From: a virus
Taxonomy: Duplodnaviria; Caudoviricetes
Strand: one strand, 5' to 3'
IMG/VR virus record: IMGVR_UViG_2772190672_000001
Location: 1-64,000 of that record
DNA: 64,000 bases
A program made the position numbers and the translations under genes. This document shows, one piece after another, positions 2,374-50,493 of this stretch. Below the pieces are notes generated by a model. It saw only the letters and a program-made list of their open reading frames with translations. It searched no databases and had not been told where the DNA came from. The first letter of the stretch is position 1, and each line of letters begins with the position of its first letter.

Positions 2374-2412
2374 CCCGGCCCAGAACCAGCGGCGTATCGC
2401 TCTTGGAGTCTA
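2374..2412 (-). promoter_or_regulatory. Late motif copy 1 (TAGACT + CGCCGCTGGTTCTGGGCCGGG) upstream of endolysin
   Basis: 21-mer at 2374-2394; TAnnnT at 2407-2412. Confidence 0.7.
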
Positions 2413-2775
2413 GCTTTCCCCGCTGCTGACGGCCTGCGCCTGCCCGGTGTAACTGGACAGGCGGCGGGCGACCGTTTCCGGGATGCCGACTGTGAGCAGC
2501 GCGGTGTAGTCCTGCATCTTCTGCGCCGCCTCGGCCGCCAGCAGTCCCGCCACACGCGCCTCCTGGTCGGCCAGCATCTTGGCCTGCAAGGTCAGGTACT
2601 CCGCCTCGGAGATCAGCCGGCCGGGGCGGGACAGCACCGGATCAATGCCGTCGCCGGTGACGGTGAGCTGGGAAATCACGCCGTCGTCGTACACCGCCCA
2701 GAAGTTGCGCGGCTGCGGCGCGGGCTGGTCGCCGCCGTCGTCGCCCGGCCACGGCCAGGGCAGGGAGTCCAGCAT
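2410..2775 (-). CDS. Small protein after fibre gene (possible fibre assembly chaperone)
   Basis: 121 aa; LISEAEY motif resembles those of 18930-19196 and 25126-25326. Confidence 0.5.
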   Translation of the reverse strand: MLDSLPWPWPGDDGGDQPAPQPRNFWAVYDDGVISQLTVTGDGIDPVLSRPGRLISEAEYLTLQAKMLADQEARVAGLLAAEAAQKMQDYTALLTVGIPETVARRLSSYTGQAQAVSSGES

Positions 2776-2785
2776 GGCGCGCTCC

Positions 2786-3619
2786 TCACAGGCTGATCAG
2801 CAGGACACGGAGGGTGAAGTAGATCGCGTAGTAGTAGGCGTTGGCCGCCCCGCGGCCGACTCCCGCCCCGAACCCGACCGGCATCGAGGAGCCTGCGGCG
2901 AGCGTCCCCCGGCCGAGGAGCTTGGTGTGCTGGGTGTGGATGCCACTCATCGTGGAGCTGCCCGTGTTGCGGATGTACTGCATCTCGTCACCGTCGAATC
3001 CGGTGGCGGCCGCTCCGCCGGCGGGCACGACGAGCCAGATGTCCACTTCCTGCTCAGCGAGCACCAGGGCCGGGCGGCATGTGTCCGGGTTCGTGACCGT
3101 CACCGAGTAGGTGTCCACGGTCGTCAGCCCCGAGGTCGGCACGGGGACGTCGTTGTATGACCGGTTCTCGAAGTAGTTGGTCAGCGACGCCTTGCCGCGC
3201 GGCTCGCTGCGCAGCACGCCGTTGCTGTCACAGGCCACCACACCGCCAGCGCTGTCCACGCTGCACGGGTAGGGCCAGGTGCCGGTGGCCACCTTGAGCG
3301 GGGTGCTGCCCGAGCCGTTGCCGGACAGGCCGCATCCCGTACTCACCGTGGCGGCACCGGTCGGCACGTACAGAGATCCGTCCGGCCGCGTGACGAGGTT
3401 GTTCCCGGCCTGCCCGGACACCTTGGCACCGATGGCACCGGTCGCCGGGTCGTAGCTCACGCCCGGCCCGGCCGACAAGCAGGATCGGACCGCCGCGCAG
3501 GGCACCTCGGCCGAGATGACATACGGGTTGGCCGCTGAACCTGAGCCGCTGACCGACGTGTTCGTGCCGGCCTGAACCGTGCAACTGCACTGACCTCCGC
3601 CGCACCCACAGCGCGCCAC
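2786..3619 (-). CDS. Tail fibre/receptor-binding-like protein, paralog of 19211-21139
   Basis: GTG 3619 (MARCGCGGGQCSC); shares GSGSAANPY, CxxVRxCxSAGxG, AGN..DGxLYxP and GCGLxGxGS modules. Confidence 0.6.
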   Translation of the reverse strand: MARCGCGGGQCSCTVQAGTNTSVSGSGSAANPYVISAEVPCAAVRSCLSAGPGVSYDPATGAIGAKVSGQAGNNLVTRPDGSLYVPTGAATVSTGCGLSGNGSGSTPLKVATGTWPYPCSVDSAGGVVACDSNGVLRSEPRGKASLTNYFENRSYNDVPVPTSGLTTVDTYSVTVTNPDTCRPALVLAEQEVDIWLVVPAGGAAATGFDGDEMQYIRNTGSSTMSGIHTQHTKLLGRGTLAAGSSMPVGFGAGVGRGAANAYYYAIYFTLRVLLISL

Positions 3620-3651
3620 TGCTCCCACCGTCCTCGGGGGTTGTGCTCGGG

Positions 3652-3686
3652 CCCGGCCCAGAACCAGCGGCGCGCCCCCGAGTCTA
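3652..3686 (-). promoter_or_regulatory. Late motif copy 2
   Basis: 21-mer 3652-3672; TAGACT 3681-3686. Confidence 0.7.
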
Positions 3687-3697
3687 TCGACGTGCCG

Positions 3698-3820
3698 CCC
3701 GGACAGTGTCCGGACAAGATCAGGACGCCTGTCCGGACAGCTCCCGGACACCCCGCCCGCCCATGCGCCGGCCTGCGCGGACACTGTCCGGACACGGTGC
3801 CCGGACAAGATCCGGACCAG
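3698..3820. repeat. Intergenic cluster of (C/T)CCGGACA / TGTCCGGACA short repeats
   Basis: About 8 GGAC(A) units in ~120 bp, including palindromic TGTCCGGACA. Confidence 0.65.
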
Positions 3821-3823
3821 GAG

Positions 3824-4555
3824 TCAGCCCCACAGCTCCACGATCACGATGCCGCTGCCTCCCCCGGTCCCGTTCGTCGTGTCACCGTCCCGCGCAAAAC
3901 CGCCCGCCCCGCCACCACCCCAGCCCCGGCCGGCGCCGCCGCCACCGGTCGAAGACCGCTGCCAACCCCCGTGCCCCATCCACGACTCGCCGCCCTCCCC
4001 CGACTGGCCCTCGTTGCCGCTGATCCGCAACGCCCCACCACCAGGGCCACCACCCTGGGCAATGTCACCGATGCCCGCGGCCGGGCCAGGCGTACCGGAA
4101 AGACACATCGGAGTGTTCCCGGAGGGCATCACAGCCTGCCCGCCCGCACCACCGTTCGCCGTGCACAAGCCACCGAACGAGGAGTTGCCGCCGTTGCCGC
4201 CGTCGGTGGTGGCCGTACCCGCTGCGCCGCCCGCGCCGACCACGATGGACTCCGTCGCCCCCAGCACGGAGACATCGATCAGCCGCTCCGAGTAGCCGCC
4301 GCCGGACCCGCCTGGCTGCGCCACCAACTGGCCGGCGCTCGCCCTCGCACCCGCGGCACCGCCACCGCCCGCCTGAACCATCACGCGGACCCTGGCGAGC
4401 CACGGGTAATCCGCCTTCTTGAACGTGTACGAGCCAGTCGTACCGAACGTGAGGACCTGGCGCAGGCCCTGCTGACCTGGGATCAGGCACAAGCGGCCGT
4501 CATCGCCGACGGTGAAGTAGTCGGAGCAAACGCATACAGACGCGATCGGACTCAC
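3824..4555 (-). CDS. Glycine-rich minor tail protein
   Basis: AGGGG, VVGAGG, GGNSSFG, GGGSGIVIVE motifs typical of the phage glycine-rich domain. Confidence 0.75.
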   Translation of the reverse strand: MSPIASVCVCSDYFTVGDDGRLCLIPGQQGLRQVLTFGTTGSYTFKKADYPWLARVRVMVQAGGGGAAGARASAGQLVAQPGGSGGGYSERLIDVSVLGATESIVVGAGGAAGTATTDGGNGGNSSFGGLCTANGGAGGQAVMPSGNTPMCLSGTPGPAAGIGDIAQGGGPGGGALRISGNEGQSGEGGESWMGHGGWQRSSTGGGGAGRGWGGGGAGGFARDGDTTNGTGGGSGIVIVELWG

Positions 4556-4574
4556 CCCTCGGGTGTGAAGTGAG

Positions 4575-4609
4575 CCCGGCCCAGAACCAGCGGCGCGACA
4601 ACGAGACTA
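4575..4609 (-). promoter_or_regulatory. Late motif copy 3
   Basis: 21-mer 4575-4595; TAGTCT 4604-4609. Confidence 0.7.
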
Positions 4610-5053
4610 GCCCGGCCGGCCCGCGTCCAAGGCGATCACGTGGACCAGCACGTCCGGCCCGGCCGGCTCGGCGACGCCGCTGCCACGCCGCCCGCGCGTG
4701 CGCCAGGCCCGTACGGTCACGCACCAGGCGGTGACCTCTTCGAGCGCCACGGTCACCGTGCGGTCGTCCTCATCCGGCGTCGGGTCGACCGCCACCGCGG
4801 TGACCGCCGGGGCCGACCCGTACGCCGTAGGGAACGTCCAGCGGGCGCGGCCGTCCTCGTCGGTGAGCAGCACCGTCCCAACCGGCCCGGCGGGCTCCAT
4901 CGGTGGCGCCTCGTGCGGCGGCGGGTCCTCCTCCACCGGCTGGCCGGACGTACGCCGTCGCGCTGCCGTCCGCGCACGGTGGTCGAGGTGGCCGAGCACC
5001 CCGGCCAGCGGGTTGCCGACGACCCGCCGCGCCGGTGATCCACGCATCGCCAT
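4607..5053 (-). CDS. Minor tail protein, beta-rich; related to 21226-21531
   Basis: Coupled to upstream gene (TGATG); TDxxGxAxxxxPxxxxxAPxVT...VHxxA pattern shared with 21226-21531. Confidence 0.55.
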   Translation of the reverse strand: MAMRGSPARRVVGNPLAGVLGHLDHRARTAARRRTSGQPVEEDPPPHEAPPMEPAGPVGTVLLTDEDGRARWTFPTAYGSAPAVTAVAVDPTPDEDDRTVTVALEEVTAWCVTVRAWRTRGRRGSGVAEPAGPDVLVHVIALDAGRPG

Positions 5054-10400: not shown

Positions 10401-11866
10401 CCCAGGGCGACGAACACCGGGCCCAGGGCCGGCGCGATGGCCCCGAGCTGCGTGACCAGCGCCGACAGGATCGGCCCGAGCTGCGCCGCGATCTGGGCGA
10501 CCGTCTTGAAGACGTTGCCGATCGCGGTCTGACCGGCTGCGGTCTGGGCGAACTGGGCGAACGCGCCGGTGATCTGCTTGAGGTTGTTGAGGAGGCCCCC
10601 GCCGTTGACGTTGGCCGCCCTCCAAACGTTGGCGAGGATGCTGCCGACGTTCTGCGCGATCGCCCCGAGCTGCTGGAAGACCGTGAGCGCGCCCCTGACC
10701 AGGGACACCGCCCGACCGCTGTCGCCGAGCCGGGTCAGGAAGTTCCCGATCCGCGTGCCGACGTCCCCGATCGCCTGGCCGACCTGCGCACCAAACGCCG
10801 TGGCGACGCTGCTCGCGACGGACAGCAGGCCCCGCGCGAGCGGCTGAACCGCCGTGGACAGACCGCCGACCGCGTCCGACGTGCCCTTGACGATGCCCTG
10901 CAGACCGTTGAACGCCGTCTTCGACGTCGCGAACTTCAGCCCCTGGTCGGTGGCCCGGCCGAACCCGGCCGCGATCTTGTCGAGTCCAGAGCCGAGCGGC
11001 AGCAGGTTCCTGACCGCCGCGGTGACGTCGCCCGAGAACTGCTTGAAGAACGACTGCTGGACCGACTGCTGGACCTTCTTCAGCTGCGGCTGCAGATTCC
11101 GGATCGCCGTGACGGCCTTCTGCGCAGCCGGGGCCAGGTCCTCGATCGCCTTGCTGAACGCGTCGGCGTCGCCGGACAGCGCAGCCGACAAGGCGTCATC
11201 GACGCCCAGGACCGCCAGCTTCAGGGTGCCGAGCGCCGTCTGGAACCCGGCGATGGCGGCCGGGCCGGCGGCGATGGCCCCGGCCGCCGGTGCGAGTGCG
11301 GCCGTCAGCTTCGCGACGCCGCTGGCGGCGCCCGCCGCGGCGATCCCGTACGCGCCGAACTTCAGGCCAGTCCCCAGGACCTTGCCGACCCTCAGTGCGG
11401 CACTGCCGAGGCCGGCCAGGGACCGGGTCAGGCGGTCGTTGTCGACGTTGACGTTCGCATTGACCCGGACGTCCGGCGCGTTGTGCGCCCGGATACGGCG
11501 GTCCAGCTCGTCCAGGTCGGGGACGACCCGGATCGGGATCTCAACGTCGGCGAGGAGGGCGCGCAGCCGCTCCACGAACCCGGTGACGTCGGGCGCCACC
11601 GGGATGTTCAGCGAGTCGACCGAGCGGAGCCCGTTGAGGAGCTGCGCGTCGAACCAGCGCAGGTCCGGCTCGACGCGGACGGTGACCGCCTGGGCGTTCA
11701 GCCCGCGCTGGATCTGGCGGCGAATCTGGTCGCCGATGCGGCGCGTCGCATTCAGCAACGCCCGCTGGATCTGGGCGCCCGTCTGGCGGGCCTGGGCGTC
11801 CGTGCTCCCATCGTTGAGATCGATGGTGATGTGCGCCGAGCCGAAATCGACGTCCTCGCCGGCCAC
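7418..11866 (-). CDS. Tape measure protein
   Basis: 1482 aa, Ala/Gly/Leu-rich helical repeats; FASGGIV..PT.ALIGEAGPE; two I.SPS.VF motifs. Confidence 0.92.
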   Translation of the reverse strand: MAGEDVDFGSAHITIDLNDGSTDAQARQTGAQIQRALLNATRRIGDQIRRQIQRGLNAQAVTVRVEPDLRWFDAQLLNGLRSVDSLNIPVAPDVTGFVERLRALLADVEIPIRVVPDLDELDRRIRAHNAPDVRVNANVNVDNDRLTRSLAGLGSAALRVGKVLGTGLKFGAYGIAAAGAASGVAKLTAALAPAAGAIAAGPAAIAGFQTALGTLKLAVLGVDDALSAALSGDADAFSKAIEDLAPAAQKAVTAIRNLQPQLKKVQQSVQQSFFKQFSGDVTAAVRNLLPLGSGLDKIAAGFGRATDQGLKFATSKTAFNGLQGIVKGTSDAVGGLSTAVQPLARGLLSVASSVATAFGAQVGQAIGDVGTRIGNFLTRLGDSGRAVSLVRGALTVFQQLGAIAQNVGSILANVWRAANVNGGGLLNNLKQITGAFAQFAQTAAGQTAIGNVFKTVAQIAAQLGPILSALVTQLGAIAPALGPVFVALGPAITGLINALGPALAAIAPVLQEVANGLAAAFAVIGPALGPVGAAVGQVLSALTPLLPLVGQVVSVLAGALAPVLQLLTGLFEPIIQELVAALMPVLPPLAQAFAVLVQALTPLATGIGQAIGQLLAALAPLFTTLAGALGQVAASLAPVITALVNALMPTLPGLVSAFSAMVQAVLPLLPSLAGLVASVAPLAVLLLRIVGPIAQIGAAFDTWLAINLVVPIIQGVVSVLTGLISGITSVITFIAQLPGMIVSGLSALGSMLASFFTGLFTSIGQFVVSGFQTVVGFFAQLPGMILAGLQALPGLLLNLFTSAVAGIAIALLTLLAGIVFTFTELPGRIASALASLGTFLLNAFVSGFNAATSAISSFLSSAASFFSQLPGRIGSALAALPGRVSSLFRSAGSSALSAASSAGSAVVSFFSGLPGRIGSALSSVGSRIAGAFRSAASSAKNAVSSLISGVVSLFSGLGSRIVGAIGNVGGQIMSKIKSGLPSSVRKYLPFASGGIVYGPTHALIGEAGPEVVIPLTRPKRAAELAARSGLLDMLGVGQARTLAATTATAASAGGSAASSVLSSLSAALSGIASLLNTVGAQVVQGMVDGIRQNQGLVAAAAQDMAGTAVTAAETTLQIASPSKVFAKIGQLVGAGFVKGLTGTAAQIKSTTDAMVKAITDAFKGKKTRVDDQLVAMLSSGNTKLQKLATQRDALVKRITDARKFAADTTNTALQAFSLQSLTQGADKVTASTLTAGLQSAVNQVKTFTAEVNRLAKRGLSKSLLQQVIGLGPEQGASIAAALSSATSDQLKRLNNLQGQLSKASTTLGNTGADLLYDSGAQAAKGFLAGLKGQQKAIEKLMLDIAKGMQTAIKAALHIKSPSRVFMHIGDMTGLGLHIGFLRRLAGLQDASRVAARNLADGVTAQLTGLGGRGGDGVVIPLTRMQRARQAAADGTAAATARGARAAGGGLQMTNYWTINEVGDAHMTAHRVLNRLVLAAGVS

Positions 11867-11893
11867 TGGGCAACCTCACAGCTCGTGTGGTTG

Positions 11894-11925
11894 CCCGGCC
11901 CAAAACCAGCGGCGATCTCAGGTTA
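11894..11925 (-). promoter_or_regulatory. Late motif copy 4 upstream of tape measure gene
   Basis: 21-mer 11894-11914; TAACCT 11920-11925. Confidence 0.7.
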
Positions 11926-12290: not shown

Positions 12291-12740
12291 GTCGCCACCC
12301 CCGTACAACTCGGTCGTCCACTCCAGCAGCTCCATCAGCACCCGGTCCGGGAGCCGCATGCTCCTGTCCTCGACGCGGACCGCGCCGGTCAGCTCGGCGG
12401 CGTGCTTGTCGGCCTCGGCCCGGGTCCGGAAGTGCGCCACGGACTTGCCGCCCTTGATGACCTCGAACCGCAGGAACCGGTCGGCGGACTCCGGAATCAT
12501 CAGCTTCGCCAGGAACTGGCGCATCGCCCCGTACACGCCGCGCAGGACGGCCGGGTCCATCTTGGTCAGGTCGGTGTCCTCCCCGAGCGCCTTCTGCGCC
12601 TCCTGAACCTGGCTGTAGCCCTCCAGGAACTCGTCCCCGAAGACCTCCGGGACGAATTCGAGCTTGCCCAGCTCGCCCAGGTTCGCGACGTGGTTCTCGG
12701 TACGGACTGCGAAGTCGCGTGTTGCCACGGGTGTGCCCAA
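12174..12740 (-). CDS. Tail assembly chaperone (gpG-like); start may be GTG 12728
   Basis: Position before tape measure; ends in low-complexity DRPTTSSSGSS tail. Confidence 0.7.
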   Translation of the reverse strand: MGTPVATRDFAVRTENHVANLGELGKLEFVPEVFGDEFLEGYSQVQEAQKALGEDTDLTKMDPAVLRGVYGAMRQFLAKLMIPESADRFLRFEVIKGGKSVAHFRTRAEADKHAAELTGAVRVEDRSMRLPDRVLMELLEWTTELYGGGDRPTTSSSGSSRASRRAGTPGKGSSRSKGSTSTAGRSAR

Positions 12741-12754
12741 TCTCCCGCGCTACG

Positions 12755-12790
12755 CCCGGCCTAACACCAGCGGCGTGCCGGGCAAGGGTA
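12755..12790 (-). promoter_or_regulatory. Late motif copy 5
   Basis: Variant 21-mer 12755-12775; TACCCT 12785-12790. Confidence 0.65.
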
Positions 12791-16149: not shown

Positions 16150-16851
16150 TCAGGACGCCAGGCAGAGGTCGCCGGCGACCGTCGAGTACTCGCACGTCGG
16201 CTCAGGCGGCGCCACGTTCGTCAGGAACATGCGCTTGTGGCAGTTCGAGCCGATCGGGGTGAGCATGGGGCCCGCGGTGCCGGCCGCGTCGATCGGCATG
16301 ACGTCGTACGGACCGACGCCCCAGCCTCCGCCGGTGCGGGTGTTGCCGGTCATCTGCAGCGTGACCGCCTCCGAGCCGATTTCCACGTCGCCGAGGATTC
16401 CGTTGGTGATCCAGGGCAACAAGAAATACAGCCAGGCGCCGCCCGTGCCGTCGGTCTGGCAGACGTCGTCACCGAGGACCTCCGCCCAGAACTCCAGCGC
16501 GAAACCGGTCCGGCAGGCGATGCTGCAGTCGTCGTAGCCGATCGGCTTGCCGTCGAAGCCGTACACGACCGGGTTGCCGGTGGTGATCTCCAGGAACTCG
16601 GGCGAGACGCTGAAGAAGTTGATCTCCACGCCGAACGAGTTCAGGGTGGGGCAACCCTTCTTGAAGCCGCACACCTTGCCGTTCGCGGCCTTGTACTTGA
16701 TGTCGTCGCCGTCGTCCGTGTCCGGCTTGAGGGCGACGGACGCCAGGCAGTCGAAGACGAACGCGTTGTCGTCACCACACACGGGACGACCGCACTGGTC
16801 GACCCTGGTAACCCTGACCGTGTCCAGGTTGCTGATCAGCGGACATGTCAT
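16150..16851 (-). CDS. Major tail (tube) protein
   Basis: RVTRVDQCG, ANG.VC, FALEFW, Y.LLPW, WG.GPY motifs; 233 aa. Confidence 0.8.
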   Translation of the reverse strand: MTCPLISNLDTVRVTRVDQCGRPVCGDDNAFVFDCLASVALKPDTDDGDDIKYKAANGKVCGFKKGCPTLNSFGVEINFFSVSPEFLEITTGNPVVYGFDGKPIGYDDCSIACRTGFALEFWAEVLGDDVCQTDGTGGAWLYFLLPWITNGILGDVEIGSEAVTLQMTGNTRTGGGWGVGPYDVMPIDAAGTAGPMLTPIGSNCHKRMFLTNVAPPEPTCEYSTVAGDLCLAS

Positions 16852-16882
16852 TGGGCGTCAAACCTCCCCTGATGCAGAGAGG

Positions 16883-16919
16883 CCCGGCCCACAACCAGCG
16901 GCGCTACTCCACCAGCATA
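16883..16919 (-). promoter_or_regulatory. Late motif copy 6 upstream of major tail gene
   Basis: 21-mer 16883-16903; TATGCT 16914-16919. Confidence 0.7.
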
Positions 16920-19210: not shown

Positions 19211-21139
19211 TCAGCCTTGCGTGGTGGTGTGGATCGTCGCGTCCGACGTCCAGCTGTTGATCGTGATGGTCCCGGCGATGACCCGGACCGCGACGAAGTA
19301 GTGCAGTGCCAAGGTGGACGAGGCCGGCTTGCCGAAACCGGCCTCCGAGACGCTGCCGGCGTAGCGCTCACGCCGGGCAGACCCGAACGCCGTCAGCACG
19401 CCCTCGATGGGCCGGGTCTGGAGGGCGCCGCCGTCCTCCTGGTAGATGTAGCCGAGTTCGAACGTCGCGGTCGAGCTGGCGCTGACGTCGATGGAGGCGT
19501 GGACGTGTGACGTGTACGACCACTGGCGGCACTGGTTGCCGAGGAAGTTCGCGGGGACATCGAACGCGACCACGGCCGGGTTGCCGCCGGGCGTGAGGAT
19601 CGCCCAGCCGCCAGTGGGCCCGATGTTGGAGACCACCGGGTTCATGTGCTCCTGGTAGAGGTGGTCGGCTGCCGTGTAGTGCTCGGGCGGCGTCCACAGC
19701 GAGCCCGTGTTCGGGTCGCACTTCAGCGTCGAGTACTGGCTGTCGGCGCAGGACCAGGTAGCTGCCCAGGCGGCGGACCCCGCGGCGGGCTTGGCGCGCA
19801 GCGGATTGGCCGCGCTGCCGTCGCCCTGGAGGCCGCAGCCGACCGTGTCCGGCGGCACGTATAGCCGGTTGTCGGCTCCGAACGCCAGCCGGTTGCCCGT
19901 GTCCGATGACGGGGCGACGAGGAGGCCGGACGGGGAGGCTTCGACGCCGTTCTGCTCGGGGGCCACGATGACGTCACCGGAGACGACATACGGGTCCGAG
20001 GCGGTCCCGGTGCCGGTCACCGTGGCGTTCAGCGTCGTGGTGTCGGCGGCCTGGACCACCGTCGCGGCCGGGGCCGGCGTGAAGATCCCACCATCCGTGC
20101 CGATCTTCGTCTGGTTGCCCGCATCACCGCTGATCTTCGCGGCGATCTCGCCGGTGGCCTGGTCGTAGGTGATGCCGTCACCGGCGGTGAAGCACCCCCG
20201 GACGTCCGCGCATTCGAGGTACAGGCCCTCGGGGCCCGACCCGATCAGGTTCGTCCCGCCCTGCGGCGGGGTGGGGTCGAGGATGACCGCCGCGCTCACC
20301 TTGTACGGGTCGGCCGCGCTGCCGGTGCCGTTCACGGTGACGTCCACGGTCGGCGAGTCCTTCGCCTGGACGATGGTCGTCCCGCCGCCGCTCGCCGGCG
20401 GCGCGTACAGGCCACCGTCGCTGCCGAAGGAGACGGAGTTCCCGGCATCTGTCGACAGGCGGGCCTCGACAACGCCGGTCGCCGGGTCGTAGCTCGCGCC
20501 CTCCCCTGCCGAGATGCAGCCGCGCACGTCGGCGCATTCCAGATACAGCCCTTCGGGCCCCGACCCGATCAGGTTCGTACCGCCCTGCGGCGGGGTGGGA
20601 TCGAGGATGACGGCCGCGCCCACCTCGTACGGGTCGGCGGCGGTTCCGGTGCCGGACACCGTGACGTCGACCGTCGTGGAGTCCTGCGCCTGGACGAGGG
20701 GGGAGCCCGCGGGGGTGTAAATCCCGCCGTCGCTGCCGATGCTCGTCTGGTTCCCGGCGTCGGTGGAGACCTTGGCGCCGATCTCGCCGGTAGACGCGTC
20801 GTAGGTCGCGCCATCGGTGGCTGAGAAGCAGGTCCGGACGTCAGCGCACTCGGCGTACACGCCGTTCGGGCCCTCGTGGAGGAGGTTGCTGCCACCACCG
20901 GGCGGCGCGGGGTCGAGGATGACGCTGCCGGTGATCTCGTACGGGTCGCCGGCCGTGCCGGTGCCCGTCAGGTCGAAGTCGATCGTCTCGCTGTCGGTGA
21001 CGGCGATCGCGGTTGCGCCGCCGCCTCCGGCCGCCGAGACGACGTACGGGTTGGCGGCGCTGCCGTTGCCGGTGACGGTCGTTCCCGTCCCAGCGGTGAC
21101 GCGGCAGTTGCAGGGGCTGACGCCGCAGCACTTGCTCAT
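19211..21139 (-). CDS. Repeat-containing fibre protein
   Basis: Three ~105-aa repeats (DSxTVD..GTG...DPY...ILDP..ECADVR.C..AGN); N-terminal MSKCCG. Confidence 0.75.
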   Translation of the reverse strand: MSKCCGVSPCNCRVTAGTGTTVTGNGSAANPYVVSAAGGGGATAIAVTDSETIDFDLTGTGTAGDPYEITGSVILDPAPPGGGSNLLHEGPNGVYAECADVRTCFSATDGATYDASTGEIGAKVSTDAGNQTSIGSDGGIYTPAGSPLVQAQDSTTVDVTVSGTGTAADPYEVGAAVILDPTPPQGGTNLIGSGPEGLYLECADVRGCISAGEGASYDPATGVVEARLSTDAGNSVSFGSDGGLYAPPASGGGTTIVQAKDSPTVDVTVNGTGSAADPYKVSAAVILDPTPPQGGTNLIGSGPEGLYLECADVRGCFTAGDGITYDQATGEIAAKISGDAGNQTKIGTDGGIFTPAPAATVVQAADTTTLNATVTGTGTASDPYVVSGDVIVAPEQNGVEASPSGLLVAPSSDTGNRLAFGADNRLYVPPDTVGCGLQGDGSAANPLRAKPAAGSAAWAATWSCADSQYSTLKCDPNTGSLWTPPEHYTAADHLYQEHMNPVVSNIGPTGGWAILTPGGNPAVVAFDVPANFLGNQCRQWSYTSHVHASIDVSASSTATFELGYIYQEDGGALQTRPIEGVLTAFGSARRERYAGSVSEAGFGKPASSTLALHYFVAVRVIAGTITINSWTSDATIHTTTQG

Positions 21140-21173
21140 GGGGCGCTCCTGGCTCGATGCGAGGGAGGAGACG

Positions 21174-21208
21174 CCCGGCCCACAACCAGCGGCGACATAG
21201 CGAGTTTA
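21174..21208 (-). promoter_or_regulatory. Late motif copy 7
   Basis: 21-mer 21174-21194; TAAACT 21203-21208. Confidence 0.7.
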
Positions 21209-29384: not shown

Positions 29385-32300
29385 AGCTGGACTCCTGTCG
29401 TGAAGGTGATGGTTACGGTGCCGGTGTCCGGCGTGATGGCCAGCGGGCCGATGAGGCGGGCGTCGTCGTCCCGCGCGATGCTCCACGTGGCGGCTTCGCC
29501 CTGGTGCAAGGTCGAGGAGCCGTCGCCGGTCGTGATGCGGCCAGTGCCGCTGTGGGCGACCGCGGTGACGGACTGGAGAGTCGGCCACGAGTCGGCCGTC
29601 CACGTGCCACCGCCTGTCAGTTCCACGCGGTGAGCCTGGACACCGAACGCGGGCGGAGCGCCCGCGGTGTCGTCCAGCGTGCTGCAGTCGACCGGGGAGA
29701 CCGGCGTGTACGGGGCGGCGAGATCCTCGGTGTAGGTGCCGAGGCTGGTCAGGGCGCCGGTGCAGTCGGCGCCGAGGATTTCGACGTAGCCGACTTCCGG
29801 CAGTCCGTCGCCGTCGGTGTCGTCGCACCGGCAGACCTCGATGACGTTCTGCGCCGGGCAGGGCTGCTCGGGGCAGCAGGCGCCGCCCCCGACCGCCGTG
29901 CACTGGCCGGCCTGCCCGGTGACCGTGTACGGCTGGCCGTCCAGGGTCGTGTCGGTGACGGCGGTGACGGCGCCGGTCTCGCAGTCGGTGATGACGTTGC
30001 GGAGGAACTGGCGTGCGCATCCGGTCTGGTCGTAGACCGTCGTCGCGGTGAAGGCGGACAGCTGCCATGCGGTGTGGCGCGGCGGCGGGCAGGTCGCGCC
30101 GCTGTCGTCGTAGGCGTCGAACGCGACCACGACAACGATGTGCCCGGCGGCGAGATCGGCGGCCGGGACGTCGGCCTCGGCGGTGAGCGTTCCGGCCCAC
30201 CCGACGGGGGTGTCGGGTGGGGCCAGCGCGAGGGCCACCCGGTTGGCGTCGCCGGGGCCGTTGTAGAGGCCGAGGAACCCGGTGGCACGGCATCCGGCGT
30301 CGGGGCCGAGCTGGGTGACGTCGACCTGCACCTTCACGTGCGCGGTGCCGGCGTCACAGGCGGGCCGCGGGGCCTGGATGACCGCCGCGGCGGTTCGTAC
30401 GGTGCCGCCCGTGCCCGGCTGCGGGCCTGCTGCGGCCGGGAGGTTCAACGTGCCGCCATCCCACAGGGCTTGCGCCCCTGGGGTGGCCACGCCTGTGGTG
30501 TACGGGTAGTACGGCCCGCCGGGGGTGTCCGTGACGGTCGGGGCCGGGGCGCCGTCGGTGGGCAGGTCGCACAGCAGCAGCGAGCTGGAGTTGCGGCACG
30601 GCTCGGGTGGGGAGGCGCACACTCCGACGGTGCCGGCCGGCGTGTACGGGGTGCCGTCGAGGCGGTAGTCGCTGTGGCCGGTGATCGTGCCGTGCTCGTC
30701 GCGGGCGAAGTCCCGTACGAACGGGGTGGAGGTGCCGTCAGCTGCGACGTCGCAGAGCTGCACCAGGTCGCGTTCGGGCTGGGCGATTCCGGCCGGGCAG
30801 GTCGTCACCTCGCCTTGCGGGGTGTAGGTGGTGCCGGTGGTGGCGTCGACCAGGCGTACGGAAGCGATCGAGCCGTCGGCGGCGTAGGAGTACTCGACCA
30901 GGACCAGGCCGAGGACATCGCCGGTGGCCGGGTCGACATCGCAGAAAGTGCCGGACACCTGGATGGAGCGGCTGTCGCCGCATGCGGTGGTCCCGGCGGG
31001 CGGGTCACCGGCCGCGTAGGCGCCGGTCGCGAGGTTGAGCCAGCCGTCCTGGGTGAGCGTGCCGTCGCAGTCGCGGGTGACGACCACGGCGATCGGTGTG
31101 CCGTCGGCGAGGCACAGGCCGAGCGTGGCGGCCGGGGTGGTCTGCTCGGCGCACGGGGTGGCGGGGCTGCCTCCGTCGCCGGTGCACACCCCGACGGTGC
31201 CGTTGATGACGTGCGGGGTCTGGCCGTCCAGGGCGACGTCATCGTAGGTGACTGCGCCGTTGACCCAGGTGAAGCGGCGCAGGAAGGGGCCGCTGGCGTC
31301 GCACAGGGTCACCGTCTCGGTGTCGGCGTACCCCAGCGTGCAGGCGACCGGGGCGACGGGCGTGTACGGGACGGACGGGTCGTCCTGGTAGGTGAGGAGG
31401 AGGCTGGCGCTGCCGTCCGGCTTGATGCACCACAGCTCGCTGTAGGCGGCGTCCGCTACGCCGTCGCCGTCGGTGTCGTCACACAGCTGGCGGCACACGG
31501 TGTCGACGCAGCCCGCGGTGCACGGCTCGGCGTCGGCCGGGGGCGGGCCGGCGGTGAACACGCCCGCGGTGTCGAGCCATCCGGCGATGACCGGATTGGC
31601 GGGGGTCGAGCCGCAGTCGGCGCAGCCGGAGCGGACGACCAGGAGCACGGTGGTGCCGTCGGCGCGGCACAGCGCGGTGGACGTGATCGAGGGGGCGCAG
31701 CAGGCGTCTCGAGCGGGGCCGCCGCTACCGCTGCATGCGCCGACGGTGCCGGTGACGACGTGCGGGGTCTGCCCGTCGATTGCGACGTCCTCGTAGGAGG
31801 CTGTCCCGGCGAGGAAGGTGTACCGGCGCAGGAAGGGGCCGCTGTCGTCGCACAGCATCACCGTTTCGGACTGGGGGCAGTCGTAGGTGCAGTCGACCGG
31901 CGAGGTCGGCGTGTACGGGACGGACGGGTCGTCCTGGTAGGTGAGGACGAGGGTGGCGGTGCCGTCGGCCTTGATGCACCACAGCTCGCTGTAGGTGGCG
32001 TCTGCTACGCCGTCGCCGTCGGTGTCGTCGCAGCGTTGGCGGCAGACGGTGTCGATGCAGTCGGTGGTGCAGGGGCCCGCGTCAGCCGGGGCCGGTCCCG
32101 GCATGAACATGCCCGTAAGCGGGTTGACCCATCCGACGACAACCGGGTCCGGAGCCTGGGTGTCGCAGTCCGCGCAGTCCGACCGGACCACGACCAGGAT
32201 CGTCGTCCCGTCCGCCCGGCACAGCGGCGCCGTCGTGATGGACGGCGAGCAGCTGCAGCCCAGCGTGCACGGCCCGGCGTCGGCCGGTGCCGCGCCGGGC

Positions 32301-33967: not shown

Positions 33968-35599
33968 TCAGGCGATCGGGCAGGCGATGCCGAGCTGCTC
34001 GCCGGTGCGGCCGTCGGGGCAGACCGGGACGGTCACGACGCGGGACTCGGGGCCGCGGGCGATGAGCGCCACGCACTCCTCGGAGAAGGCCGCCGTGTAG
34101 TCGTTGGTCTGGAACTTGGTCGAGTCGTGGATCACGCCCAGCGAGATCTCGCCGCCGCGGCCGATCTGGAACGTGCCCGCCGGGTGGATCAGGAACGGGA
34201 TGCTGTCCGGCCAGTCGGTGGCCGGGGTCGGGCCGCCGATCTGGGTCGGGACGTTCGGCGACAGGCCGCGCGCCCACTGCACGCGGACACCGAGGGTGGC
34301 GAACGCGTTGATGATGCAGGACTCGTCGATCTCGTCGCAGGCGACGCCGTTACGGCGGGCGATGTCGGCGAGGAACATCGCCTTGCTCCACCACGGGAAG
34401 ACGACCTCGATCGAGATCGACTCACACAGGGAGTGCCGCTCGACCATGTCGGCGGCTTGCAGGGCGACCGCCGCGAAGATCGCGGAGAACGCGCCGAACG
34501 TCTTGGCGATGGTGACCGGCGTGGACGCGGCCACGGCCTGGTCGAAGAGGACCTGACGGACGCGCAGCTCGTGGGCGACCATCGTGTTCCGCTGGTACCA
34601 GGCGACCAGCTCGGGGAAATGCCTCTGGGTCAGGATGCCGGCCTCCAGGCAGACACCGACCGCGTCACAGCGGATCTCGTCCGGCTCCGGGCAGGGGATC
34701 TTGAAGCACGGCTTGACCGCACCGGAGATGTCGTCGGCCTCGGTGTGGACGAACGTCATCGAGCCGACGTCCAGCGACGGGATCTTGAAGAACCGCAGGC
34801 CGCCACGGGCGAGCTGGATCTCGGGCGCGTCCCACAGCATCTCGGGGCACGCGATGTCGGTCAGCGTGTAGACGGTCTCGGACGGGGCGCACCAGCCGCC
34901 GGAGGCGACGATGTTGCCCTGCGGCAGGCGGGACTGGTCGGCGGCCAGCAGGACCGCCCGGGTGCCCTCGGTGCCCGACGAGCTGTCGTTGATGATGAGG
35001 TTGTTGTCGAACGGCAGCCGGTACGAGGCGCACAGGCCGACGCCGCCGCCTGCGGTCTTGAGGGCGTTCGCGCGGCGGATGATGCCCTCGGTGACGCCCT
35101 CCATGTCGAGCGGCTGGCCGGGCTGGTAGCCGGGCACGTCGACGGACGCGGTGATCTCGGGGCGCGGGTTCGGGTCCGGGGGCAGTACACGCGGCTGGTG
35201 CACGCGGACGCGGGACAGGTCGAGGGCACGGGACTTGGCGACCGCACCTGAAGCGGTGATCGGCTTCTCGGGCTCGGGCTCGACGGCCGGCTCGGGCTCG
35301 GCCGGCTCCTCCGGCTCGGTCGCCGCGGCGGTGGCCTCCTCGCCGTCGTCGCCGCGCACTGCGGCGGCCAGCTGCTCGATCTCGGCCGCGGCCTGCTCGG
35401 CGGCCTCGATGCGCTCGGCCTTCTCCGCGCGGATGTCGTTGACGGCGGTCGCCAGCTCGCGGAGCTTGGCGAGGTCGTCGGTGGTGACGGTGCTGCTGCC
35501 CGCCTTGGCGTCGAAGGCCTTCACGGCGCCGTCGAGCAGGGTGTCCAGTTCCTCGTCGCTGAGGGCGGTGATGTCCTCGGGAAGGGAGAACTCGTCCAT
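33968..35599 (-). CDS. Major capsid protein with N-terminal scaffold-like coiled coil
   Basis: ASGGWCAPSETVY, RGGL.F, D..GVCL..GIL, N.YTA.F.EE motifs of actinophage capsids. Confidence 0.85.
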   Translation of the reverse strand: MDEFSLPEDITALSDEELDTLLDGAVKAFDAKAGSSTVTTDDLAKLRELATAVNDIRAEKAERIEAAEQAAAEIEQLAAAVRGDDGEEATAAATEPEEPAEPEPAVEPEPEKPITASGAVAKSRALDLSRVRVHQPRVLPPDPNPRPEITASVDVPGYQPGQPLDMEGVTEGIIRRANALKTAGGGVGLCASYRLPFDNNLIINDSSSGTEGTRAVLLAADQSRLPQGNIVASGGWCAPSETVYTLTDIACPEMLWDAPEIQLARGGLRFFKIPSLDVGSMTFVHTEADDISGAVKPCFKIPCPEPDEIRCDAVGVCLEAGILTQRHFPELVAWYQRNTMVAHELRVRQVLFDQAVAASTPVTIAKTFGAFSAIFAAVALQAADMVERHSLCESISIEVVFPWWSKAMFLADIARRNGVACDEIDESCIINAFATLGVRVQWARGLSPNVPTQIGGPTPATDWPDSIPFLIHPAGTFQIGRGGEISLGVIHDSTKFQTNDYTAAFSEECVALIARGPESRVVTVPVCPDGRTGEQLGIACPIA

Positions 35600-35633
35600 G
35601 GGGCCGGGCTCCAAAAGATCGATCTTGGAGTCG

Positions 35634-35672
35634 CTCGGCCCAAAACCAGCAGCGCGCTGATAGCACAGCATA
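35634..35672 (-). promoter_or_regulatory. Late motif copy 8 upstream of major capsid gene
   Basis: 21-mer 35634-35654; TATGCT 35667-35672. Confidence 0.7.
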
Positions 35673-43697: not shown

Positions 43698-44954
43698 GTG
43701 ATCATTCTTGATGCGTGCATTCTTCGCGGATCCGGCCTGAACAGCAGCAGCACGGATGTCCTGCGGGCCATACGCACTGCTGGTGTCGAGGGCGTCGCGG
43801 TCCCGTGGATGGTCATGGAGGAGCTTTCCGCGCAGCAGGCGATCAAGTACCGCAAGCAGTACGAGGCGGCGGCACAGGCGATCGAGTCCCTGGGCAAGCT
43901 GACGCCGTGGGGGCTGGGCTACCCGATGCCGGACATGGACCTTGACCGACTCCGGGAGCACTGGCGTAAGCAGTGGTCGAGCGTTGTCGATGTGATCCCC
44001 ACCAGCGAAGCCGCGCTTCGGGAGGGGGCGTTCCGCGAGGCGAACGGGTTGGCTCCTTGCAGGGACGACGGGAGAAAGACCGGGGCACGGGACGCGGCCA
44101 TATGGCTGTCGGCCGTCGAGTACGCCAAGGAACACGCGGATCAGACCGTCTACTTCGTCAGCGACAACACCCGGGACTTCGGGGACGGCACGAGCTACGC
44201 GGATCCGATGCGCACTGACATCGCCGAACTTGGGGAGCGGTTCGTCCACCTGACCGGCCTGGGCGAGGTCATCGACCGATTCACGGAATCCACGACCGTC
44301 GAGCAAGACGTCATCCAGCGCGCCGTGGAGTCCGAGGCTGCCCTCAGCGCCATCAGTCGTCTCGCGCACACCCTTGGAGGCGGCGGGAAGAGCACTGCCT
44401 GGCTCCAGGCGATCGGCGGCAGCGCGTTCCCGTGCAAGGTGGCTGATGAGAATCAGGAGCCCATTCACGTCAGCGCAGACGGCTGGCTCCACGATGCGTT
44501 GAGGACTCGGCCCACCACGATCAGCGACGTGGAGTCGTACCGCGTCGGCGATCATGTCTGGTGCACGGCTACCGTCCGATGGCTTGTCTATGGCACCGCT
44601 CTCTTCGGCAGCTTCCCGAAGATGGCGGCTTGCGCCTTCGAGGCACGGGTTCTGTTCGCTCCAGACAATGACGACCCCCGCCTGACGGTCCTCCGCCACT
44701 CCCCCTTCGAGCCCGCTACGGACGCCGAGTTCACCGAGCTGAAACCCGTACTGACGTGGAACTTTCTGCTGAGCGCGGACGAGTTGCGGGCACGCACGGG
44801 GGTGGACCAAGCCGCGCTCGCCAAGATCGTCGCGGATGGGGACACGAAGCTGTGGATGAGGGTCCTGGCAGCTACCACGATGCTGACCACCGGACTTTCC
44901 AAACCGCTGTCGGCCATCTCCGACATCCACATGGGCGAGACCCACGAAGGCTGA
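43698..44954 (+). CDS. PIN-domain ribonuclease-like protein (moron)
   Basis: IILDACIL, VMEEL, RDAAIWLS, FVSDNTRDF acidic tetrad; AGGAG RBS; opposite strand. Confidence 0.75.
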   Translation: MIILDACILRGSGLNSSSTDVLRAIRTAGVEGVAVPWMVMEELSAQQAIKYRKQYEAAAQAIESLGKLTPWGLGYPMPDMDLDRLREHWRKQWSSVVDVIPTSEAALREGAFREANGLAPCRDDGRKTGARDAAIWLSAVEYAKEHADQTVYFVSDNTRDFGDGTSYADPMRTDIAELGERFVHLTGLGEVIDRFTESTTVEQDVIQRAVESEAALSAISRLAHTLGGGGKSTAWLQAIGGSAFPCKVADENQEPIHVSADGWLHDALRTRPTTISDVESYRVGDHVWCTATVRWLVYGTALFGSFPKMAACAFEARVLFAPDNDDPRLTVLRHSPFEPATDAEFTELKPVLTWNFLLSADELRARTGVDQAALAKIVADGDTKLWMRVLAATTMLTTGLSKPLSAISDIHMGETHEG

Positions 44955-45275: not shown

Positions 45276-45298
45276 TCACCCGGCAGGTGTACGCCGGG

Positions 45299-48012: not shown

Positions 48013-48145
48013 GGGTGCTCACGGTCCTTCTGTCCCGGCCCGGGGGGGGTGGGCGGGTGCTCCGGTGGTAGGCGCGAGCCCGCAAAGCCGGTGTGGGGGT
48101 GGGGGCTTTGCGGGCTGTGGCCATGCGTGGGTGCGTCGGGCGTGG

Positions 48146-48976
48146 CTAGGCCGTGGTGTCGGCCTTGGCGGCTTCCTCGGCTTCCTTGGCGGCTTGCTCG
48201 ACTTCGCGGCGGGCGATGTCGGTGAGGAGGGCGATCATGGTGGTGAAGTTGCGGACGTCTTTGCAGCGGCCGAAGGCGTACACCGCGGCGGCGAAGTCCT
48301 CGAACATCTCGACGGGGGCGGCGCCGACGAGGTCGGTGCCGTTGGCGATGGCGGTGATGGCGTCCTTGAAGTCCTCCATCTGGTGCGGGAGGAACATGAG
48401 GGTGGCGGAGCGCCAGTCGAACTCGCCGTGTGGGATGGCCAGCTTGGTGTCGTCGGGTTCGACGGTGGGGAGCTGGTTCTCGTCCAGGCCGGTGGCGATC
48501 AGGTCGTCCACGTTGTCGATCATGGAGACGAGCTGTGCGAGGACGTCCTTGTCGGGATCGCCGTGCAGCTCGTTGTGGGCAATCTGCTTGGCGATGACCT
48601 CGGAGCGGCGCATCGTGCGGGTGTCGATGATGGCGGGGATCTGCTGGAGGCCGGCGGCGCGTGCGGCGCGGGAGCGGTGGTGGCCGGAGATGACCTCGAT
48701 CGGGCCGGTTCCGCCGGGCTGGTGGCAGTAGGGCAGGGACTCGACCATGCCGCGCTTGCGGATGTTGCCGGTGAGCCGCTCGAAGTGGCGGGGCTGCATG
48801 ACCTGGGCGTTGATGTCCTGCTCACGGAGGGAGGCGACGTCGACCCAGCGGATGAACAGGTCCTCCCCGATCTGCATGACGTCGCGGGCCGGGTTCTCGG
48901 TGCTCCAGGACATGCCGGTCGGGTCGGGGTCCGGGGCCTGGGCCGGCTCCTGGTCCTGGGGGGCCGGGGTGGTCAC
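48146..48976 (-). CDS. ParB/Srx N-terminal-domain protein
   Basis: GTG 48976 overlapping upstream stop; NA..M, VISGHHRSRAA, IAHN.L.G. Confidence 0.8.
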   Translation of the reverse strand: MTTPAPQDQEPAQAPDPDPTGMSWSTENPARDVMQIGEDLFIRWVDVASLREQDINAQVMQPRHFERLTGNIRKRGMVESLPYCHQPGGTGPIEVISGHHRSRAARAAGLQQIPAIIDTRTMRRSEVIAKQIAHNELHGDPDKDVLAQLVSMIDNVDDLIATGLDENQLPTVEPDDTKLAIPHGEFDWRSATLMFLPHQMEDFKDAITAIANGTDLVGAAPVEMFEDFAAAVYAFGRCKDVRNFTTMIALLTDIARREVEQAAKEAEEAAKADTTA

Positions 48977-50430
48977 TTCTTCTTCGCCTTGCTGCGGCTT
49001 GCGCGCCATGCCTGCTCCTTGGTGATGAACGCGGTGAGGGTGGTGGGGATGTCGGTGGTGGACCAGTCGGCGCGGTACGACAGCTTGTAGCCGTCCGGGT
49101 GCTTGGCCCGCGATTCCAGCTGCATGAGCCCGCGCAGGCCCTTGGCCTCGGGGTGGCGGGTGTACTCGACGGTGACGAGGCCGTTCGATGCTGCCAGCAG
49201 GATCTCCGAGGCGCCGGTGAACACGAGCTTGGCGCTGTCGCGGCGCAGCGCGAGCATCGTCGCCAGGCGGGTCAGGCGGAGCTCGTAGTGGGGGGCGCCG
49301 AACGCGAACCGCATCAGCAGGTGCGTCGTGTACTTCGTGGCGCCGGGGTACGGGCGGGTCATCGTCTCCGCGCCGTAGCCGATGACGCCGGCGACGAAGC
49401 CGTCCACGATGACGAGCATGTTGTACGAGCCGGGCGCCGCGGCGAGCCGGTGCATCCACAGGTCGCGGTAGTAGTCCACCTCGGTGCCCTTGGCGGGGAC
49501 GACCTCGACGCGGGACTGGTCGGTGACCTGGTGGTCCGGGGGGATGATCGGTAGAGAGGTAGGCGCGGTGGACCGGGACATGCCCAGGGCGACCTTGGGC
49601 CCTCCGGTGAGCTTGAAGATCTCCTCCGGCCGGTTGCTGATGACGAAGGCGCGGGCGACGTCGCCGAGCGGGTGCGCGAACACCGGGGTCTCGTGGGCCG
49701 CGATGCCGGAGCGCTCCTCCTGCAGGAACATCAGCAGGGCGGCCTTGTCCCGCATGTGGTCGGCGAGCCGCTGCATGTCGACGTCGGGGTCGAACACCGA
49801 GTAGGGGGGCTCGTTCCACTCGACGCGGCCGCCGGTGTCGAAGAACTTCTCGAAGCCGGCCTTGTACGTCGGCGGGGCGGCGATGATGATCGCGTGCGGG
49901 TCGTCCTCGGCCTCGGCGATGTGGTCCCACATGCACTTCGGGGTGAACTTGACGCCGGGGAGACGGTCTGCGATCTGCTGGAGCGAGCCGACCAGGCGGG
50001 CCTTGTGCTCGTCTTCCCGCTCGATCATGTCGGTGACGAGGTTCGTCCAGTAGTCCACCTCGGGCTTGGCCTGCATGCGCGCGAGCCAGTGGACGTACAG
50101 GAGGTGCGCGGCCTGCTCCACGATCGGGGCGTCGGGCAGCTCGACCGGCTCGCCGTCCAGGGTCATGCCCAGCGACGTGAGGTCGCCGCCTGACACGCAG
50201 GTGCCGACGATGCCGGTGTAGAGGGTGACGTCGGACGTCTCCATGCACGACGGTGGGATGCCCGCGTTGGCGGCGACGAGCGCCGCGGCGAACGAGCCCA
50301 CGCCGACCTCGACGTAGCGGGTGTACTGGTCGCGGGGGAGCCTGTTGAAGACCTGCCGGTAGAAGGCGCGGTCTGGCGCTGAGGAGTTGCCGGCGAACAG
50401 CACTCCGGGTGCGGCGAATCCTGCGGGCAT
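48973..50430 (-). CDS. Putative DNA-modification protein: degenerate adenine-MTase fold plus C-terminal domain
   Basis: YVEVGVGSFA (motif I-like) and AAPPTY (motif IV-like); coupled to ParB-N ahead of terminase. Confidence 0.55.
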   Translation of the reverse strand: MPAGFAAPGVLFAGNSSAPDRAFYRQVFNRLPRDQYTRYVEVGVGSFAAALVAANAGIPPSCMETSDVTLYTGIVGTCVSGGDLTSLGMTLDGEPVELPDAPIVEQAAHLLYVHWLARMQAKPEVDYWTNLVTDMIEREDEHKARLVGSLQQIADRLPGVKFTPKCMWDHIAEAEDDPHAIIIAAPPTYKAGFEKFFDTGGRVEWNEPPYSVFDPDVDMQRLADHMRDKAALLMFLQEERSGIAAHETPVFAHPLGDVARAFVISNRPEEIFKLTGGPKVALGMSRSTAPTSLPIIPPDHQVTDQSRVEVVPAKGTEVDYYRDLWMHRLAAAPGSYNMLVIVDGFVAGVIGYGAETMTRPYPGATKYTTHLLMRFAFGAPHYELRLTRLATMLALRRDSAKLVFTGASEILLAASNGLVTVEYTRHPEAKGLRGLMQLESRAKHPDGYKLSYRADWSTTDIPTTLTAFITKEQAWRASRSKAKKK

Positions 50431-50459
50431 GCCTGTCCCTGGGGGAAGGTGGCGGATCG

Positions 50460-50493
50460 CTCGGCCCACAACCAGCAGCGTCGGGCAAGGGTA
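50460..50493 (-). promoter_or_regulatory. Late motif copy 9, at the head of the modification/packaging operon
   Basis: 21-mer 50460-50480; TACCCT 50488-50493. Confidence 0.7.

Follow-up and report, generated by a model that had tools for sequence, protein, structure and literature searches.

The first 64 kb of a 111,280-bp Caudoviricetes provirus of Streptomyces (IMG/VR record IMGVR_UViG_2772190672_000001; G+C content 70.7%), called the window in the following, contain nine copies of a 22-nucleotide (nt) element that very probably acts as RNA. All copies are intergenic and located on the coding strand, each preceding the first gene of a late unit for virion, packaging or lysis functions; a TAnnCT hexamer precedes every copy by 5-12 nt, and a start codon follows after 25-33 nt. 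In the reading that we favour, and to which we assign about an even chance, the element is a leader RNA operator that governs the translation or the stability of the late messenger RNAs (mRNAs) through a conserved putative partner.

A first-pass annotation of the window had reported a 21-mer that occurs nine times on the minus strand. Eight of these copies were recovered without mismatch by pattern search and the copy at 12755 with two mismatches (Table 1), compared to 0.07 motif matches expected by chance; none of 100 shuffles equalled the observed count. The motif is one base longer than the 21-mer, as it includes a conserved C22. A covariance model applied to the whole 111-kb provirus returned exactly these nine matches with 31-39 bits, everything else scored 20 bits or less, and the remaining 47 kb of the provirus beyond the window contain no copy. 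We treat a tenth candidate at 44506 as chance or decay, because it has three mismatches, is missed by the covariance model and lacks both a TAnnnT hexamer and a well-placed start codon. The hexamers and the spacings of 5-12 nt had been listed correctly, and scans against Pfam and PHROGs assigned the downstream genes to the functions proposed initially, or to close ones.

Sequence comparison of about 370 further copies, from prophages of Streptomyces, Kitasatospora, Embleya, Nonomuraea and Planomonospora and from the isolated phage TurkishDelight, revealed that positions 5-19 are near-invariant with the exception of N12, while positions 2-4 and 20-22 vary in concert. The pair 4-20 is found as C-G in 186 copies, as U-G in 43 and as U-A in 20, but never as C-A. 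Among 61 distinct motif types, the pair 3-21 is replaced by U-A in seven and the pair 2-22 by A-U and by G-U in two each, and 99.5% of the cells formed by the three adjacent pairs on these types are standard pairs. Double changes occupy 24 cells, compared to 7.9 +/- 3.3 after shuffling, and none of 500 shuffles reached 24. The pairing collapses when the register is slid by one to three columns. The underlying pattern searches were biased against double changes and not towards them, because only two mismatches were allowed. In one copy, C6 and G19 are changed jointly, which would add a fourth pair with a double change if C6 and G19 are modelled as a pair. A single-base insertion after G5 is tolerated, and the exchanges U11>G and G14>A always occur together, corresponding to a swap of the UNUG tetraloop for GYUA; the form found in the Woodruffvirus phages additionally carries U10>C, which yields C10-G15. 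Because G-U is tolerated and C-A is absent, the covariation points to a helix of the sense-strand RNA and not to a symmetric DNA site. As is typical of structured cis-regulatory RNAs, compensatory changes thus preserve the pairing across homologues.

The predicted structure would start with a lower stem of G2-C22, C3-G21 and Y4-R20, above which G5 and C6 could form a small bulge. An invariant upper stem would follow, consisting of U7·G19 or C6-G19 and then G8-C18 and G9-C17, capped by a UNUG loop that would be closed by U10·G15 (or by C10-G15 in combination with GYUA) and in which N12 alone appears free to vary. Due to its lack of variation, the upper stem is neither backed nor contradicted by covariation. 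A coding reading of the motif with N12 as wobble position was rejected on the basis of stop codons and of the promoter hexamer immediately upstream.

The element is widely distributed in related phages. A scan of IMG/VR identified at least 116 loci with the motif, many of them with two to five copies. In a scan of one genome per prokaryote species, the matches listed included Streptomyces, Kitasatospora, Embleya, Nonomuraea, Planomonospora, Planotetraspora and Sphaerisporangium; single matches in Rhodobacterales all lie inside one conserved coding sequence and are unrelated. The possibility that the motif is a common host intergenic repeat, which the first-pass annotation had named as a potential objection, was discarded, because in five whole host genomes of 7-10 Mb the exact copies are confined to one cluster of 10-25 kb each, corresponding to a single prophage. 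The nearest relatives of the window are Streptomyces plasmid-prophages of roughly 100 kb. Among 50,697 deposited phage genomes, the motif was found only in Streptomyces phage TurkishDelight (NC_073473), which contains eleven copies and none of them in its non-structural arm. They precede the genes for the capsid, the major tail protein (two tandem copies), the chaperone, the tape measure (two variant copies), two minor tail/membrane proteins and the tailspike.

Outside the window, 296 of the 358 copies are followed by homologues of the late genes that the motif heads in the window itself, and the flanking intergenic sequences at orthologous motif sites differ among phages. Thus, the element is kept at orthologous sites while its intergenic surroundings change. 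Tandem copies are found before major tail and tape-measure genes. The element is not previously catalogued: using Rfam 15 at the gathering threshold, the sole match in the whole window was a transfer RNA (tRNA) gene at 51326-51399, a scan of the region 2200-4700, which includes three copies, at a permissive E-value gave no match at the motif, and searches for the motif sequence and for TurkishDelight found nothing in the searchable literature.

Where a downstream gene could be recognised (372 copies), C22 and the start codon are most often 27-28 nt apart, with an interquartile range of 25-29 nt. In 319 of these copies, the end of a TAnnnT hexamer lies 5-13 nt upstream of position 1 (86%, versus approx. 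3% estimated from base composition), mostly at a distance of 5-9 nt. The fifth hexamer position is C in 91% of the copies, and TAGACT is the commonest hexamer. In most of the remaining copies, the hexamer is located 16-45 nt away and the gap contains an additional hairpin or a second motif copy; a small hairpin is typical before tape-measure genes, and a second copy, often of the type-2 form described below, before genes for major tail proteins. In about ten copies, no hexamer was recognised. Thus, the element is loosely tied to the promoter and tightly to the start codon. In line with the earlier remark that no shared -35 element is evident, nothing is conserved upstream of the hexamer in the 319 aligned copies, neither a -35 element nor an activator-like box. 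Actinobacterial sigma-70-family promoters of the -10-only kind have a TANNNT hexamer and can dispense with a -35 element, and the hexamers found here may represent this kind. In sigma-70-type promoters, the -10 hexamer and the transcription start site are usually separated by 6-7 nt. Applied to the spacings observed here, this would place the start of transcription within approx. 2 nt of the hairpin; most likely, host RNA polymerase initiates at a -10-only TAnnCT promoter 5-9 nt upstream of the hairpin.

The distance to the start codon also bears on gene annotation. The annotated start of TurkishDelight gene 33, encoding the tailspike, at 30557 falls within a motif copy (region 30546-30600). 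Because of the spacing rule and a Shine-Dalgarno sequence, the true start is probably an ATG approx. 23 nt past the motif, and the deposited start would be approx. 35 nt too early. In addition, ATC apparently serves as start codon in five of the 372 motif-led genes. For the fibre-like gene of the window, the probable start is ATC 4546, from which it reads I-A-S-V-C-V-C; its orthologues read M-A-S-V-C-V-C from ATG or GTG.

A natural variant of this arrangement is provided by the lytic Woodruffvirus phages Mischief19 and Xkcd426, which share the whole virion module with the provirus and contain no integrase or repressor gene within the first 45-50 kb inspected. Most of their late genes are headed by bare hexamers (TAGACT, TAAGCT or similar) and leaders of 35-45 nt. 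A type-2 motif (GCYGCTGGCGTTAGGCCGGGT or a shortened form; type 2 has CGYUA where type 1 has UUNUG) is present only before the capsid, major tail and tape-measure genes, where it is located 26-28 nt from the start codon. The bare hexamers suggest that the predicted -10-only promoters work without the motif, which therefore behaves as an add-on for particular genes, and the variant argues against a role of the motif as lysogeny operator. That the motif has been retained at the genes of the two most abundant virion proteins and is found in tandem before major tail genes suggests a positive role.

In the mechanism that we propose, a 22-nt RNA stem-loop would be located at the 5' end of each late mRNA, or at most approx. 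2 nt from it, with a constant spacing of 27 +/- 2 nt to the first gene's start codon. A highly conserved putative partner, which could be a host component or a virion-module protein, would recognise the hairpin and thereby set translation initiation, mRNA stability or both for all late messages together, probably with a positive effect. The constant spacing to the start codon speaks for a role linked to the ribosome-binding region. A possible route involves the 3' half of the motif, GGGCCGGGC, which may alternatively pair with the C-rich nucleotides that separate the Shine-Dalgarno sequence from the start codon; hairpin formation or binding would then expose the ribosome-binding site, comparable to the action of Com on Mu mom mRNA. 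In comparison to 702 control genes, the 5 nt that precede the start codon are enriched in C, and pairing of the 3' half of the motif with the region from -13 to +3 is stronger (-9.6 versus -8.3 kcal/mol in controls, p=4e-9). With its native spacer, the Shine-Dalgarno sequence is somewhat less likely to be unpaired than with a shuffled one (probability 0.32 versus 0.385). Two alternative foldings of the leader are therefore a possible working hypothesis. A variable hairpin that hides the Shine-Dalgarno sequence was striking by eye, but it was dismissed as only weakly above background in G+C-rich DNA.

Several observations weigh against this proposal. The isolated hairpin is thermodynamically weak and no stabler than shuffled sequence, which suggests that it requires a partner or a wider context to form. 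The effects of alternative pairing are small, the stretch of 25-30 nt that separates the motif from the start codon is no more stably folded than its counterpart in the control genes, and in minimum-free-energy folds of the whole leader the 3' half of the motif mostly pairs downstream, replacing the hairpin. Copies at orthologous sites are not independent, and the covariation counts thus overstate the number of separate events. Furthermore, the 5'-terminal position of the hairpin is deduced solely from the hexamer, and approx. 70 open reading frames (ORFs) compared with Pfam or PHROGs contained no RNA-binding, antiterminator or sigma domain.

The motif is near-invariant in phages whose orthologous proteins are 45-70% identical, which argues for a very conserved partner, such as host machinery or a virion-module protein. 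The genes common to TurkishDelight, the provirus, three distant prophages and two Woodruffviruses are those of the virion module, a WhiB-like gene (100004-100225 in the provirus) and an HNH endonuclease gene. A ParB/DUF3560 group and a DUF488-like protein of 186 amino acids are found only in the temperate ones among them, and in the co-occurrence analysis none of the non-virion candidates (ParB/DUF3560, DUF488-like, WhiB, HNH endonuclease) was present in all lineages. The 186 amino acid protein (phrog_2450; 51532-52092, minus strand) is encoded by the last gene before the late arm and has a DUF488-like C..E...CHR signature; it is conserved in the three distant motif-bearing prophages, but no counterpart was detected in TurkishDelight. 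The few non-structural genes that TurkishDelight and the provirus have in common include an ADP-ribosyltransferase-like gene and a PP2C-type phosphatase gene (98491-98802 region and 75305-76285 in the provirus; gp70 and gp114 in TurkishDelight), and either product could modify the machinery of host transcription or translation. A search of the provirus for a phage sigma factor gave no match to Sigma70_r2 or r4_2. With regard to an RNA partner, no antisense RNA was found in the phage genome beyond the opposite strands of the copies themselves, pairing with 16S ribosomal RNA (rRNA) is no better than for shuffled motifs (p ~0.1-0.17), and a search for rRNA operon mimicry found no similar sequence.

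The hairpin might also be a docking signal for invariant host machinery, i.e. for RNA polymerase or for the 30S subunit together with a 30S protein, instead of a phage protein. The near-invariance across host families and the linkage to the virion module, and not to a regulator gene, agree with such a function, which we nevertheless rate as a tentative, minority possibility. If it applied, it would imply privileged translation of late mRNAs in actinomycetes, a bacterial counterpart of viral translational enhancers, and this enhancer would be common to an entire module of virion genes that passes from temperate to lytic phages and vice versa.

It appears unlikely that the hairpin is a nut- or put-type signal for processive antitermination or against pausing, which would load a factor or bind RNA polymerase on late units of up to 14 kb. 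Such a signal would be compatible with an RNA hairpin that lies close to the promoter wherever a late unit begins, with the existence of tandem copies, with the retention of the motif at the long tape-measure gene even in Woodruffvirus and with the second, variable hairpin that follows the motif and recalls the two-stem put RNAs. However, there are no intrinsic-terminator-like sites inside or between the units, very short units of 0.6-1.2 kb, such as those of the chaperone and fibre genes, carry the motif too, and the tight distance of 25-29 nt to the start codon has no role in antitermination. A boxA-like sequence is also missing, and the ORFs scanned include no N-, Q- or NusG-like protein. 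The tight distance is likewise left unexplained if the hairpin is a passive 5'-terminal stabiliser against RNase E or RNase J with no specific partner required. The predicted transcription start, 0-3 nt before the first paired base at the common hexamer spacings, and the high expression of the late genes concerned would fit this rather improbable explanation, but so generic a role does not need 15 interior bases that are invariant across host families. Moreover, the hairpin is weak in isolation, and in approx. 10% of the copies another hairpin or motif is located 5' of it, so that it is not terminal there.

The first-pass annotation had also considered that the element acts at the DNA level, as a downstream activator or operator site, next to a transcribed leader signal for antitermination or translation control. 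Its leader option is favoured by the compensatory changes in three consecutive pairs, which include G-U but not C-A, and by the distance to the hexamer, which varies while that to the start codon is fixed. These findings count against a downstream DNA site. It is quite improbable that the element is the downstream part of a special late promoter, read as duplex or non-template DNA by a phage-modified RNA polymerase, although the predicted promoters are of the -10-only type, with an unusual 91% C at the fifth hexamer position and no -35 element. The WhiB-like protein common to these phages could lift the -35 requirement of sigma, and its gene is among the few non-virion genes shared with Woodruffvirus; a repeat in Microbacterium cluster EC phages also begins with TAGaCT (PMC7302621). 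In conflict with such a promoter, the spacing between hexamer and motif ranges from 5-13 nt up to 45 nt, the covariation is of the one-strand type with Watson-Crick and G-U pairs, and Woodruffvirus uses the same kind of promoter without the motif. Equally at the DNA level, a stoperator-type operator, at which a repressor or a late activator binds a 22-bp site downstream of the late promoter, is very unlikely. A temperate phage must silence nine predicted -10-only promoters, the site is asymmetric, oriented with transcription, intergenic and overlapping the expected start site, and its GCY...RGC ends are palindromic. A DNA dyad, though, does not produce the asymmetry between T...G (43 copies) and C...A (none), and the near-invariance in hundreds of prophages of several genera speaks against an operator, because these phages cannot all share one immunity specificity. 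The variant is moreover found in Woodruffvirus despite the lack of integrase and repressor genes in the part inspected, and the fixed distance is to the start codon and not to the hexamer.

The late modules of the window are listed in Table 1. For the 277 amino acid protein at 3619, which had been described as a fibre, no family match was found.

Table 1. Late modules of the provirus headed by the 22-nt element, and the terminator-like hairpin of the late arm. Gaps are the distances between hexamer and motif; the 21-mer column gives the match position, with no mismatch unless indicated.
Feature	Extent	Strand	Hexamer (gap)	21-mer	22-nt motif	Start codon	First gene and remarks
Late module 1	50430..50493	-	TACCCT 50488-50493 (7 nt)	50460	50459-50480, U4-A20 variant	ATG 50430	DAM-like/GNAT-like enzyme, then small and large terminase genes; 28-nt leader
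Late module 2	35599..35672	-	TATGCT 35667-35672 (12 nt)	35634	35633-35654, U4-A20 variant	ATG 35599	Major head protein (phrog_777)
Late module 3	21139..21208	-	TAAACT 21203-21208 (8 nt)	21174	21173-21194	ATG 21139	642 amino acid virion-region protein, Cys-rich N-terminus, no family match
Late module 4	16851..16919	-	TATGCT 16914-16919 (10 nt)	16883	16882-16903	ATG 16851	Major tail protein (phrog_792)
Late module 5	12728..12790	-	TACCCT 12785-12790 (9 nt)	12755 (two mismatches)	12754-12775, variant G11/A14, 31 bits	GTG 12728	184 amino acid protein at tail-assembly-chaperone position (phrog_12617)
Late module 6	11866..11925	-	TAACCT 11920-11925 (5 nt)	11894	11893-11914	GTG 11866	Tape measure protein
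Late module 7	4546..4609	-	TAGTCT 4604-4609 (8 nt)	4575	4574-4595	Probably ATC 4546, 27 nt past motif; alternative GTG 4555	Fibre-like protein (phrog_863)
Late module 8	3619..3686	-	TAGACT 3681-3686 (8 nt)	3652	3651-3672	GTG 3619 (or 3628)	277 amino acid protein, no family match
Late module 9	2342..2412	-	TAGACT 2407-2412 (12 nt)	2374	2373-2394	TTG 2342	Endolysin (phrog_880)
Terminator-like hairpin	630..662	-					Strong intrinsic-terminator-like hairpin, 13-bp stem then T-rich tail; sole strong one in the late arm, after the lysis genes

Consensus scans did not reveal any two-box sigma-70-type promoter. No intrinsic-terminator-like site was found within or between the late units, and therefore read-through from upstream units is also possible; the hairpin at 630..662 probably marks the end of late transcription. 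The late arm may thus be read from nine internal promoters plus read-through, and the distributed late switch that had been proposed initially is plausible.

Several motif-led virion proteins of the window (21139, 3619, 4546, 16851) and their orthologues have Cys-rich N-termini, i.e. MSKCCGVSPCNC, MARCGCGG, MASVCVCSDY and MSCPLIAN, which are kept in relatives. Upstream of the TAGACT hexamer of the 3652 unit, the region 3690-3730 contains repeated GTCCGG(A/G)C words (e.g. tgtccggacactgtccggg), which are kept in relatives (loci L102, L112 and L006) and may be a separate protein-binding site particular to this promoter. The approx. 850 bp at 50481-51325, between the tRNA gene (minus strand) and the first late promoter, have a lower G+C content of approx. 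65% and contain no convincing ORF. This stretch, located just upstream of the terminase unit, may serve for packaging (cos) or as an origin, or it may be a region of non-coding RNA.

The timing and boosting of late gene expression in actinobacteriophages is largely obscure, and repeated intergenic motifs are known in several clusters without a mechanism. A 22-nt RNA structure that is supported by covariation and follows a clear positional rule offers a concrete handle on this question. Cultivable carriers exist with TurkishDelight and, for the variant, with Woodruffvirus/BG-cluster phages, which makes mutagenesis, 5' end mapping and pull-down experiments feasible. In addition, the element aids annotation by predicting start codons, including the probable ATC start and that of TurkishDelight gene 33, and it could serve as a compact expression part for Streptomyces engineering.

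The comparison with known systems reveals partial similarities. In the mom leader of phage Mu, the zinc-finger protein Com binds a single hairpin, opens the ribosome-binding site and activates translation. The element described here may resemble this system, as a small hairpin directly precedes a predicted structure that would block ribosome binding to a late gene; adjacency and alternative pairing were both observed but are weak, and the support for such sequestration is modest. Mu, however, has one site, one gene and a known partner, whereas the present element has nine or more sites per genome, and no Com-like protein was identified among the approx. 70 ORFs scanned. The nut sites of lambdoid phages, consisting of boxA and boxB, and the put RNAs of HK022 are promoter-proximal leader RNAs that act in cis. 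They share with the present element that hairpins in phage leaders are repeated at more than one operon. In contrast, the present element lacks boxA, has a different type of hairpin, is followed by no terminators, occurs in nine copies and not in two and keeps a fixed distance to the start codon; boxA, terminators and an N-like protein, which characterise lambdoid nut sites, were not found in the ORFs and late units scanned. T4 late promoters consist of a -10-type element only, TATAAATA, depend on the phage's own sigma factor gp55 and have no conserved leader hairpin. As in T4, many late units here would each have a -10-type-only promoter, but no phage sigma factor was detected. The stoperators of cluster A phages are asymmetric sites 13-14 bp long, to which the immunity repressor binds, and are specific for an immunity group; the present site comprises 22 nt, is near-invariant across genera and shows covariation of the RNA type.

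Closest in kind are repeats of other actinobacteriophages. Mycobacteriophages of cluster K and Microbacterium phages of cluster EF carry start-associated sequences (SAS and ESAS), which are present in 10-20 repeats per genome and are suspected to have a role in translation (PMC3203893; PMC7302621). Like the present element, they are short, asymmetric and highly conserved; their copies all point the same way, occupy short intergenic gaps at a constant short spacing from the start codon and are missing from the host genome. SAS is located 3-7 bp from the start codon, contains AGGAG and is confined to non-structural genes, and the inverted repeats of ESAS gave no support for RNA pairing (PMC3203893; PMC7302621). 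The element described here, in contrast, is positioned 25-29 nt upstream of virion, packaging and lysis genes, follows a -10 hexamer, shows base-pair covariation and contains neither a Shine-Dalgarno core nor a ribosome site. The 18-bp motif of Microbacterium cluster EC, 5'-TAGaCTATaGGTgTaAgC, is asymmetric and intergenic, occurs 12 times per genome at 22-30 bp before the start codon (PMC7302621) and begins with TAGACT, the commonest -10-like hexamer of the present element. In EC phages, which encode a sigma factor, the motif is a single fixed block that includes the hexamer (PMC7302621), whereas in the phages studied here hexamer and motif are separable, their spacing is variable, no sigma factor was found and the downstream sequences are unrelated. 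Thus, the SAS of clusters K and EF and the cluster EC repeat are the nearest described sequences, and the present element differs from them in sequence, position, gene class and covariation.

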